A stretch of 64,000 bases of DNA from Escherichia phage vB_EcoM_PTE-Eco09. Both the position numbers and the translations under genes were made by a program. Positions 61,193-64,000 of the stretch are shown piece after piece (position 1 is the stretch's first letter; each line of letters starts with the position of its first letter). The DNA lies in the sequence record PQ306574.1; one strand, given 5' to 3'. The notes under the pieces were generated by a model, which was not told where the DNA came from, made no database searches, and was given only the letters and a program-made list of their open reading frames with translations.

Positions 61193-64000
61193 TCATTGTT
61201 AGACCTTCACGCGGCCTATATTCTTCGATGCCGTTTGCACCGTCATATATTACCACGGGCGCGTATTCTTCCCCCAATTCATCTAATTCCTTTCGGAATA
61301 TTTCGGAGGCGATCCGCATTTCGTCTTTTCCTGCATATTCGGCGAATTTTTCTTGAGTTGTTAACCAACCAAATATTACCAGACTCATGACCAAATCATC
61401 GTGAAAACCTTCTTCTGCCGCCCAGCTTACCCCCTTCTCGGAGAATGTGCGCAACTCCTGAATAGTTCCTTTATGATTAATGATCAGCTTATCTTTTTCT
61501 ATTAAGTCTTTTAGTGCCGAACATCCCATTGCTTTAGATCTTTTGGATTGTTTCATCCCTAGATCTATGAATGAGTCGCAAATAATATTATCATATTCAA
61601 GATCCATCGCAAGAGACTTAGCAATAGATACACCCGTACTATTTAGCTCGATATAAACTGGACATTCGTTATACATCATGAGATATTTAAAGACAATATC
61701 CGGTAGTATAAAATGTGACGTAGTATTGCTGTGATATACTGCAACCTGCTTATAAGGAAATTCAGTAATATCAATGATTTGCAATGCATGATAGTCCTGT
61801 CCTCGACCCTCTGAGCAATCTAGTGTAGCAACATATTTTCTACCTTCTTTCGGTTTCTCAAACTGATAAAACCCGTTATCATTAACAACGTCAATAAAGG
61901 ATAATCTTGATAGTGTGGTTGCCCTGATCAGAGTACCGGAACTACCGAAAAATTCAGCGTTATGTTCCTGTAAGAATTGCTCAAGACTAGATCCGGCGAT
62001 CGCCTGAGATGACCACTCATAACCATCATCGAATATATCAGCTTTATTGTAAAGACGTTCTTTAACAGAATGCCAAACCGCCTCATATGGAACATAACCA
62101 CTTTTACCATCAATAGCCGATTGCCAGATATCATAAAAGTGATTAAGCCCGTTCGGAGTCGTGGTCATGATCAGCTTAGATTCACGACCAGATGAGATAA
62201 CTGGTTGAATAGCTAACCATGCGTCCTGCCACGCACTAATAAAGGCTGCTTCGTCTATGTATATGAAACTAAAGGAGTTTCCGCGCACCGCATCTGGTGA
62301 TGATGCATAAGCGCCGATACTAGACCCGTTTTCTAACACAATAGATTTCTTGTTCCATTCAACGATACCAGGTTGTAGAAAATCAGGTAACAATTCTATC
62401 GCCTGTTTTGTACGTTCTAGAACTTCAACTGACATAGATCCTTTGTGTGCCAGTATACCTACAGCTTTGTCTTTATTAAAGCAAACGTAGTGAGCAAGGA
62501 ATATTGCTACAGCGGTAGTATTATGAGTCGGAATAAATTCACGACCGCACAGATATAGTTTATCCTCGCTGTCAACCTGAATACATTTTACCGGACGAGA
62601 TTCAACCGGATTAATTTCACGAATAAAAAGAAAATCTGTTCTTGTATCTTCGCAAGAATTAATAAGATTTGCTTTCTTACGCTTAATTCGAACCGGACAC
62701 ACACCCTTATCTGCATATGCATTAAATGAAATTCTGTAATATACAGTACCTTTTACCACTTTTTCTTTCATTTTCGGCTTAAAGCCCAATCCGCACAACA
62801 GCGAATAAATGTCATCGATAAGCGGTTTCAGTTTTAATGTAATTTCAGCATAACCATTTTTATTGATGCATCCGTCAGAATCCATGATACCTTGCAGTAA
62901 TGCAGTTCGCTGATCAATATCAGCGAATTGGTATTCCATAGGGATATGCTTATTGCCAGCAACGCCAGCGGTTTTAAGTCCTTCCCATAACCCATGCGCA
63001 GACGTTGTGAGAACGTTGCTATTGCGTTTATCTGCAAAAGTATATGTATGATAGCCTTGTTCGTTTAAATGCGTCAGAATGCCGCTATCGTCCTTATGGT
63101 GGGTGATTCGTGCTGCATCAGTGTGACCATCACCTAACCAATAACCTAAAGTATACGGATCAACAGGAAGAACTTTAGTTTCTCCCTTAATCGGTTTAGT
63201 CTTAGCGATTTTAAATCTGGATTGACCTTTGGTAGTAATACCCTTATCGACCATTTCCTGAGTTGTAACATCACGCTTGACATGTTTGTTGCCAACTTTT
63301 TCGTATACAGTCCAGATATGATCGGCATCAGCAACAACTTTAGCGCCAGTATCTAAAACAACTTCGTAGCACTTGCGATCATACTGGTATTCCGTTGCAT
63401 ATACAACATTAACTAAACGACCATTAGGCGCATAGATCTGATCACCTTCTTTAATATCCCCCATACGTTTAAACCCATCGCTGGTAGGAATAGGCGTATT
63501 AACATCAAGTGCTTTACCTAGCTGACGACTGAGTTTATGTGCACTCATGCGGTTTTCATGCATGATCTTAAGCATATCTTTCTGATAATCACGCAATTGT
63601 ACTTTGATTGTACCGTAGTCGATGTGTGTAATTGCGCAATAGGTTTCGGCAAAATACACAATATCTTTACGGCATCGTTTCCACTCTGCGATCATTTCAG
63701 GGGTATACTGAGTTTTAATATTCGCCCTTCGCAAGTTCTTTAATCGCATATACCGCGTGCGAATATTGTCACTATCTTTAAAGAACTTATAATTTGTTGG
63801 ATCAGTGCTTTGCATCCTTATTTTCTGCGGTCTGTTTAATTTCAGATAGTCAGAAAAATTTTTAGGATACCATTTATCATCATGCTTTGATAAAATCCAT
63901 TCAATGCCGTTTGAATCAATTTTAGTTTCTAGTGTAGACGGATGCGCTAAATGTAGCGGGTGTTCATCCGTCGCCATTGCGTTAATCCCTTCAATCACGC
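61188..64000 (-). CDS. 17: terminase large subunit gp17 containing an intein (5' end beyond window)
   Basis: Collinear with recalled T4 gp17 except for about 331 extra residues inserted in Walker A; first 2-3 codons lie beyond position 64000. Confidence 0.9.
62520..63512 (-). mobile_element. intein with LAGLIDADG homing-endonuclease domain inside gene 17
   Basis: Inserted exactly within SRQLGK|TT of Walker A; element begins ALDVNTPIP and ends FIPTHN followed by Thr; two LAGLIDADG-like motifs ([20 protein letters not shown]). Confidence 0.8.

Follow-up and report, generated by a model that had tools for sequence, protein, structure and literature searches.

The large-terminase gene at the end of the 64,000-nucleotide stretch of Escherichia phage vB_EcoM_PTE-Eco09 analyzed here (PQ306574.1, hereafter the window) is predicted to carry a full-length class 3 intein. 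The element, composed of a HINT splicing domain with a nested LAGLIDADG homing endonuclease, lies between the lysine and the threonine of the Walker A motif of this Krischvirus terminase, a reading to which a probability of about 0.9 is assigned. The original prediction had proposed an intein with a LAGLIDADG domain splitting this motif, and the identification is supported by four independent lines of evidence: homology, predicted fold, conservation of the splicing residues, and the occurrence of empty-site alleles.

The open reading frame that houses the insert (61188..63998, minus strand, 2811 nucleotides) shares 99.8% identity with the large-terminase genes of phages kvi (MN850615) and ECD7 (KY683735) and is flanked in the T4 order, gp16-gp17-gp18. 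The window is Krischvirus DNA, of the RB49-like 'pseudo-T-even' coliphages in the family Straboviridae. When the whole protein was searched against the PDB with phmmer, T4 gp17 (3ezk) aligned in two pieces on either side of the insert (E 6e-270), with the first piece stopping at T4 residue 166/167 and the second restarting at T167. Pfam detects Terminase_6N (E 1e-40, beginning only at residue 494) and Terminase_6C (E 4.6e-23). As judged from these sequence matches, the host protein is a T4 gp17-type large terminase with ATPase and RNase H-like nuclease domains. The length of 936 residues given at first holds for the reading frame inside the window but not for the full precursor, as the gene runs past the window end and the true ATG, seen by alignment with kvi and RB49, lies 6 nucleotides beyond base 64000. 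The precursor comprises 938 residues (kvi coding sequence, 2817 nucleotides) and RB49 gp17 comprises 607, the same length that the spliced product would have. The GTG 'start' at 63998 is an artefact of the window end, and the real ATG overlaps the end of gene 16 (terminase small subunit) by 4 nucleotides.

The insert occupies residues 163-493 of the reading frame (ALDVNTPIP...EFIPTHN) and follows the flank ...KLSRQLGK, without a stop codon or frameshift. RB49 gp17 aligns base for base with the window on both sides of a clean 993-nucleotide gap, without duplication or deletion, the junction reading GGTAAA/GCACTT...CATAAT/ACTACC in the window and GGGAAA/ACTACC in RB49 (slashes mark junctions). 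The break of the T4 gp17 alignment at K166 and its resumption at T167, obtained from the alignment that the original prediction had proposed, place the insert between the Walker A Lys and Thr, splitting SRQLGK/TT. Translation, the RB49 gap, and the T4 comparison thus agree with the proposed 331-residue insert at 62520-63512, exactly in the P-loop, and translation likewise confirms its first residue, Ala, and its terminal His-Asn followed by Thr. The coordinates of all features are listed in the table below.

Homology and predicted structure identify the insert as an intein. The closest solved structures found by phmmer when the insert was searched against the PDB are 6rix and 6riy (M. chimaera DnaB-1) and 6bs8, titled as the class 3 DnaB intein of Mycobacterium smegmatis (E 2.5e-18 to 3e-17), all deposited as 'replicative DNA helicase'. 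These DnaB mini-inteins align to the insert in two separate stretches, over residues 1-69 and again over the final 28-35 residues, the sequence pattern expected of a homing endonuclease nested in a HINT domain, and PI-SceI comes next in the same search (E 3e-4), over the endonuclease part. The AlphaFold2 model of the insert, built from a 47-sequence alignment, has a mean pLDDT of 96.7 and a pTM of 0.93. In a Foldseek comparison with the PDB, the whole-molecule matches are PI-SceI (E 1.2e-19, TMq 0.76), TliVMA, PhoVMA, and PI-PfuI, the HINT half matches the class 3 DnaB inteins 6bs8 and 6rix (TMt 0.78-0.86), and the endonuclease half matches I-DmoI.

Class 3 inteins are defined by a non-nucleophilic residue 1, a co-varying Trp-Cys-Thr (WCT) triplet, and Thr or Ser, rarely Cys, at +1, with the Trp at block B position 12, the Cys at block F position 4, and the Thr at block G position 5 (PMC2807308, Tori et al.). 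They occur mostly in the ATPase P-loops of helicase-like proteins, phage large terminases (TerL) included (PMC2807308). The corresponding blocks of the insert are D62-A-D-H65-I-W67 (block B), V-K-C310-I-Q-V (block F), and I-P-T329-H330-N331 (block G), with Thr at +1. In the HMMER alignment to M. smegmatis DnaBi1, Asp62, His65, and Trp67 carry the same numbers in both proteins, and C310, T329, H330, and N331 correspond to Cys118, Thr137, His138, and Asn139. In the DnaBi1 crystal-structure paper these seven residues constitute the catalytic centre (PMC6195587). Conservation was assessed in an alignment of 97 relatives, in which W67 and C310 lie outside the pattern used for picking the sequences. 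W67, C310, T329, H65, and N331 are present in all 97, D62 and H330 in 96, and A1 in 93, with the same conservation in the 18 relatives outside dCTP deaminases. Where both ends of a relative could be delimited, the -1 residue is Lys (96/96, in GK or a similar context) and the +1 residue is Ser (87/96) or Thr (9/96). All sequence signatures of the class are present, and on these grounds the intein is assigned to class 3. Within this assignment Ala1 is a normal class 3 mark rather than a sign of decay, and Cys310 is predicted to make the first attack.

The original prediction had regarded the leading alanine as either non-canonical, in the manner of class 2 or class 3, or splicing-impaired. Of these options class 3 is upheld by the WCT triplet and Thr+1, and the other two fall away. 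If the intein were decayed, Ala1 would represent the loss of an ancestral Cys or Ser, with the phage tolerating or bypassing the defect; an alanine is indeed incapable of the N-S/N-O acyl shift used by standard class 1 inteins, and the termini go unrecognized by the Pfam and NCBIfam intein profiles. This is nevertheless very unlikely, given that Ala1 is the family norm and comes together with the complete WCT triplet, the signature of class 3 (PMC2807308). The catalytic residues are also intact, the ratio of non-synonymous to synonymous substitution (dN/dS, omega) of 0.11 indicates purifying selection, the frame is free of stop codons and frameshifts, and the viable lytic phages that carry the insert have just one gp17, found at one place per record, whose Walker A motif is the split one. 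A class 2 (KlbA-like) intein dispenses with a block F nucleophile, its +1 residue attacking the N-terminal junction directly, and shares with the insert only an initial Ala. Class 2 requires Cys+1 and lacks WCT (PMC2807308), whereas the insert has Thr+1, W67, C310, and T329, and its nearest solved relatives are class 3 inteins, not KlbA, leaving this assignment extremely improbable.

The distribution of homologues indicates that the element behaves independently of the terminase. Homologues of the insert were found in 853 phage records, in mycobacteriophage terminases, RecB/Cas4-like exonucleases, and DnaB and other helicases. The host proteins in a large protein database include Terminase_6, Terminase_1, and GpA-type terminases, PD-(D/E)XK nucleases, and, most numerous, bacterial dCTP deaminases, with IMG/VR contigs giving the same picture of host variety and GK context. 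Because the element moves among unrelated proteins yet keeps its own ends, the sequence comparisons identify it as a mobile intein and not a terminase domain. The dCTP deaminases, which house 79 of the 97 close relatives, carry it at EGK/SSLGRLG, a site that is not a P-loop and mimics the GK-[ST] context. This suggests that the requirements of the endonuclease or of splicing track a short GK-S/T motif when the element switches host proteins.

A lineage-specific accessory domain retained in the mature terminase, the alternative that the original prediction itself had named and that is now effectively refuted, has a continuous reading frame in its favor and nothing else. Such a domain would have to split the GK/T of a P-loop and adopt a HINT plus LAGLIDADG fold, and its homologues follow GK in unrelated hosts (dCTP deaminase, RecB-like/Cas4-like nucleases, DnaB, and three terminase families) while sister phages lack it precisely. 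Its probability is close to negligible, and the intein reading stands.

The empty site is well represented among close relatives. The intein is present in 11 phage records at >=95% protein identity, from Denmark, Nepal, and elsewhere, and an empty site is present in about 50 Krischvirus records, RB49, JSE, and Phi1 among them, so that approximately 11 of 60 carry the element. Presence and absence are found within species: kvi, of species Krischvirus RB49, carries the intein and the type strain RB49 lacks it, and in species gec3s Makalu_003 carries it while the exemplar GEC-3S does not. The 24 nucleotides on each side of the site are almost invariant among intein-less alleles, and homing targets are therefore available. 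The GC content of the intein equals that of the host gene (both 39.5%), which argues from base composition that the element is not a recent arrival from high-GC actinophages.

Occupation of the same site extends to more distant phages. A metagenomic T4-like terminase (P0001) bears a 68%-identical intein at the same site within an extein 62-74% identical, and the distant Terminase_6 terminases P0002, P0003, and L017 carry inteins 38-41% identical, again at the same site. By these sequences the gp17-type terminase site has evidently been occupied for a long time. In the IMG/VR scan ECD7 is the sole close relative, with the other viral contigs at <=41% identity. The terminase intein of Vibrio phage 2 TSL-2019 was considered as a second Straboviridae member and rejected, as this is a jumbo phage of another subfamily.

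Both activities of the element appear, from sequence comparison, to be under selection. Pfam LAGLIDADG_3 (PF14528) matches the insert with an E of 1.5e-6 (28.8 bits against a cut-off of 22.5). The two LAGLIDADG-like motifs foreseen earlier are present, LGYWLGDGH at residues 122-130 and the second at residues 205-214, and their counterparts in PI-SceI-type inteins are blocks C and E. The Krischvirus intein variants comprise the type of the window, kvi, ECD7, FL15, and AV108 and the Makalu and ELT3 types, 43-45 nucleotides and 12-13 amino acids apart. Nei-Gojobori dN/dS between variants is 0.11-0.12 overall and 0.09-0.13 in the endonuclease domain, and these low values, overall and within that domain, are the reason for considering splicing and endonuclease functions alike to be maintained. 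The C-terminal splicing segment shows zero amino-acid replacements between the variants.

The remaining alternative accepts splicing but holds the endonuclease immobile, with ordinary homologous recombination, and now and then a precise loss, producing the patchy distribution. Mosaicism is pronounced in T4-like genomes, the window being 99.7% identical to kvi at gp17 and better matched by AV108 over 24 kb; carriers make up only the minority of Krischvirus records given above, and a diverged patch flanking the intein is unlinked to it. These observations lend the alternative some weight, and it is regarded as unlikely but worth serious consideration. Conversely, conservation extends to the LAGLIDADG helices and to both catalytic Asp residues, purifying selection acts on the endonuclease domain (omega 0.09-0.13), presence and absence are polymorphic inside species, and related TerL inteins have demonstrably active endonucleases (PMC5050341), all of which argue for an intein whose endonuclease is functional.

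The patch in question, in the C-extein of gp17, spans 308 nucleotides with 68 mismatches against RB49, followed by near-identity over the next 1 kb, and its substitutions are mostly synonymous (omega 0.04). It is shared fully by kvi and ECD7, by half in the intein-less JSE, and partially by Makalu, which has a third version. Outside these four phages, no donor more than 79% identical was found in the phage collection. A second patch lies in gp18 (window ~60251-61000), and both are about 20% divergent in nucleotides from most Krischvirus genomes, chiefly at synonymous positions, inside otherwise 98-100% identical genes. An interpretation of the gp17 patch as a co-conversion footprint of homing was rejected, as the tract is RB49-like in the intein-bearing FL15, AV108, and ELT3 and the intein-less JSE shares part of the patch. 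Comparison of the window with kvi and AV108 around gp17 revealed general mosaicism alone at recombination boundaries. The patch is best described as mosaicism close to the homing site; it fits repeated recombination at that place but does not count as evidence of homing.

Several points call for caution with the proposed reading. The Pfam scan of the terminase returned no Intein_splicing or Hint match, and the NCBIfam scan returned weak partial matches to intein-containing proteins alone. A literature search found no experiment on the element, whether a junction peptide, a splicing assay, or a cleavage assay. Support for recent homing is circumstantial, with the patch not consistently linked to the intein. 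Because the generic profiles miss the splicing domain, the HINT assignment rests on PDB homology and the predicted fold, and the suggested comparison with intein profiles succeeded for blocks B, F, and G by way of the PDB homologues while failing for the Pfam and NCBIfam splicing profiles. This failure of the profiles probably explains the missing annotation and was not counted against an intein.

Table. Features of the intein-bearing terminase gene in the window (positions in the window; residue numbers are those of the intein unless stated otherwise)
Feature	Position	Strand	Basis
N-extein of TerL, ending in Walker A SRQLGK; Lys-1 = T4 K166	63513..64000	-	aligned to T4 gp17 residues 20-166 (3ezk)
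Whole putative intein, 331 aa, 993 nt, in frame, without target-site duplication	62520..63512	-	clean gap against RB49
Putative HINT N-terminal half (aa 1-105, approximate boundary): Ala1, Cys48, block B	63198..63512	-	DnaB intein alignment; model secondary structure
Ala1, non-nucleophilic first residue	63510..63512	-	Ala in 93/97 relatives
Cys48	63369..63371	-	aligned to DnaBi1 Cys48; Cys in 95/97 relatives
Block B DADHIW: Asp62, His65, Trp67 (W of WCT)	63312..63329	-	alignment; PMC2807308, PMC6195587
LAGLIDADG homing-endonuclease domain (aa ~106-290)	62643..63197	-	PF14528; PI-SceI, TliVMA, PI-PfuI, I-DmoI fold matches
LAGLIDADG motif 1, LGYWLGDGH, catalytic Asp128	63123..63149	-	Asp in 93/97 relatives
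LAGLIDADG motif 2, LLQGIMDSD213G, catalytic Asp213	62871..62900	-	Asp in 95/97 relatives
Putative HINT C-terminal half (aa 291-331): blocks F, G	62520..62642	-	aligned to 6rix 111-145, 6bs8 112-139; model
Cys310, block F position 4 (C of WCT), predicted first nucleophile	62583..62585	-	aligned to 6bs8 Cys118; 97/97
Block G Thr329-His330-Asn331; Thr329 = T of WCT, Asn331 = predicted cyclizing residue	62520..62528	-	alignment
Thr+1, first C-extein residue, predicted second nucleophile	62517..62519	-	= Walker A Thr167 of T4 gp17
C-extein: remaining ATPase domain and RNase H-like nuclease domain, stop codon included	61188..62519	-	Pfam, 3ezk alignment
Mosaic C-extein patch, 39-346 nt downstream of intein	62174..62481	-	~79% to most Krischvirus alleles; 100% to kvi, ECD7

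The anatomy, homology, conservation, and polymorphism described above are observed, and the splicing chemistry and DNA-level behavior outlined here follow from the intein family. The 938-residue precursor would be unable to bind or hydrolyze ATP, with 331 residues parting GK from TT. Cys310 of block F would attack the Lys(-1)-Ala1 bond, aided by Asp62, His65, and Trp67, to give a thioester branched intermediate, from which the N-extein would be passed on to the hydroxyl of Thr+1. Cyclization of Asn331 would then release the intein, and an O-to-N acyl shift would restore SRQLGKTTAVA in a 607-residue active terminase, with SRQLGKTTAVAIF as the ligated junction peptide. In a mixed infection, the freed intein endonuclease would cut intein-less gp17 at the uninterrupted CAGCTAGGGAAA/ACTACCGCT site, and repair templated by the intein-bearing genome would copy the element in, which constitutes homing.

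With 331 residues between the Walker A Lys and Thr of the precursor, splicing should be a prerequisite for ATP binding and packaging, as already expected for this gene, and Kelley et al. argued the same dependence for TerL inteins (PMC5050341). Viable, plaque-forming phages (kvi, ECD7, AV108, and others) have the intein in the one terminase gene they possess. Because the carriers form plaques and have one gp17, there is strong reason to infer that splicing must work in vivo, and the element is predicted to be probably active in both splicing and homing.

Splicing of M. smegmatis DnaBi1 requires Cys48, and this residue also pairs with the catalytic block F Cys in a reversible disulfide that stalls splicing under oxidative stress (PMC6195587). 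Cys48 was called 'non-conserved' in the DnaBi1 work, yet it is Cys in 95 of the 97 relatives examined here. Conservation of Cys48 is the single observation pointing to a redox-gated switch on DNA packaging through Cys48-Cys310 pairing, a speculative and rather improbable proposal. If it were true, the redox state of the infected cell would control maturation of the packaging ATPase and hence when heads are filled.

Comparison with characterized inteins places the element in a known family while separating it from each known member. The M. smegmatis DnaBi1 (6bs8, 6own) and M. chimaera DnaB-1 (6rix, 6riy) inteins share Ala1, Cys48, Asp62, His65, and Trp67 under identical numbering. Their block F Cys and C-terminal T-H-N align as well, and like the element in the window they are inserted in a P-loop after GK and before Ser/Thr. 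The DnaB elements, however, are mini-inteins of 139-145 residues that have lost the endonuclease and reside in a bacterial helicase, in contrast to 331 residues with an intact LAGLIDADG domain in a phage terminase, and identity is limited to about 100 splicing-domain residues. The Bethlehem DnaB intein, the class 3 prototype, likewise has a non-nucleophilic residue 1, WCT, Thr+1, a P-loop site, and about 341 residues including an endonuclease (PMC2807308). Its host is a helicase, and the likeness is inferred from shared motifs and from homology to DnaBi1.

The mycobacteriophage TerL inteins (TerL1-a and TerL1-b; PMC5050341) resemble the element in size (~330-340 residues), in combining class 3 splicing with LAGLIDADG, and in occupying a large terminase. 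TerL1-a interrupts Walker A between its invariant Lys and Thr, a position called the 'classic' P-loop site. The mycobacteriophage TerL inteins tested spliced fast and efficiently, and their endonucleases cut intein-less alleles specifically (both PMC5050341). Their hosts are Terminase_1-type proteins of high-GC actinophages, whereas the present host is a Terminase_6, T4 gp17-type protein of a 39% GC coliphage, and identity stays below 40%. Omega gp11 is the nearest mycobacteriophage TerL intein in the phage collection (38.8%); this gene, situated between the small terminase and portal genes, is labelled 'exonuclease'. In the mycobacteriophage survey, Terminase_6-type proteins carried inteins only at the C-motif and not at the P-loop (PMC5050341).

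PI-SceI (yeast VMA1) and the archaeal TliVMA and PI-PfuI are the best whole-molecule folds, with HINT and a nested two-motif LAGLIDADG domain in common (TMq 0.70-0.76). They differ in belonging to class 1 (Cys1, Cys+1), in sharing just 15-17% identity with the element, and in their greater size, which includes an additional DNA-recognition region. The metagenomic P0001, P0002, P0003, and L017 share the insertion point [SP]RQxGK/...THN/TT, a Terminase_6-type host, and the intein family. They are uncultured and unannotated and belong to other phage lineages, with exteins 30-74% identical.

The wider genomic setting is one of recombination. Over window positions 40000-64000 (24 kb), AV108 is the closest relative in the phage collection (97.7%) and kvi reaches 92.5%, while the gp17-gp18 surroundings are 99.7% identical to kvi. 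The best match over 24 kb (AV108) differs from the best gp17 matches (kvi and ECD7), and the source genome is therefore a mosaic Krischvirus. The same late-gene cluster holds a second mobile endonuclease: in kvi, just past the window end (309-893 of L001), the neck-protein genes 13 and 14 are separated by a free-standing homing endonuclease gene, some 2 kb upstream of the terminase.

Terminases are a common intein target in viruses and phages, with 22 Terminase_6 inteins counted in bacterial prophages (PMC4760082). An actinophage survey recorded 293 terminase inteins and 287 class 3 inteins in all, with class 3 LAGLIDADG inteins found almost entirely in terminase and Cas4 exonuclease genes (bioRxiv 10.1101/2025.01.02.630785). 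According to a 2024 paper, coliphages had no reported inteins (PMC11162368), and our literature search on Krischvirus, ECD7, and gp17 of T4-like coliphages found no paper linking them to an intein. The element is a previously unannotated example of a well-described kind of intein. In GenBank, none of the 11 intein-bearing records flags an intein, the gene being called 'terminase large subunit', and in FL15 (PP400778, 495-3311) and FL04 (PP358550) the terminase is mislabelled 'replicative DNA helicase DnaB', likely because a k-mer annotator keyed on the likeness of the intein to DnaB inteins.

A separate case was encountered in the Stx2a-converting phage Stx2_PV12-16 (LC616041), where a 797-residue DnaB-like helicase reading frame at 1898-4291, a region without gene annotation, contains a class-3-like intein in the P-loop (ARPGMGK/AMALSEG ... 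DNHLW ... ECLCIMV ... IVTHN/TELA). Matches were obtained in 49 Stx2a-phage records. As another coliphage intein, it too runs contrary to the 2024 statement.

In biological terms the element is ordinary, class 3 inteins in phage terminase P-loops having been on record since 2010, with hundreds surveyed in actinophages. The analysis corrects the annotation, both for the unflagged intein and for the DnaB mislabels, and the 331-residue insert matters for the typing of Krischvirus by terminase length or sequence and for expressing the terminase. A further point of modest value is the presence of a complete, apparently active class 3 intein in a T4-type coliphage that grows on E. coli K-12, beside natural intein-less sisters such as RB49. 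The pair of kvi-type and RB49-type phages would offer a tractable system for intein homing, co-conversion, and in vivo splicing during infection.

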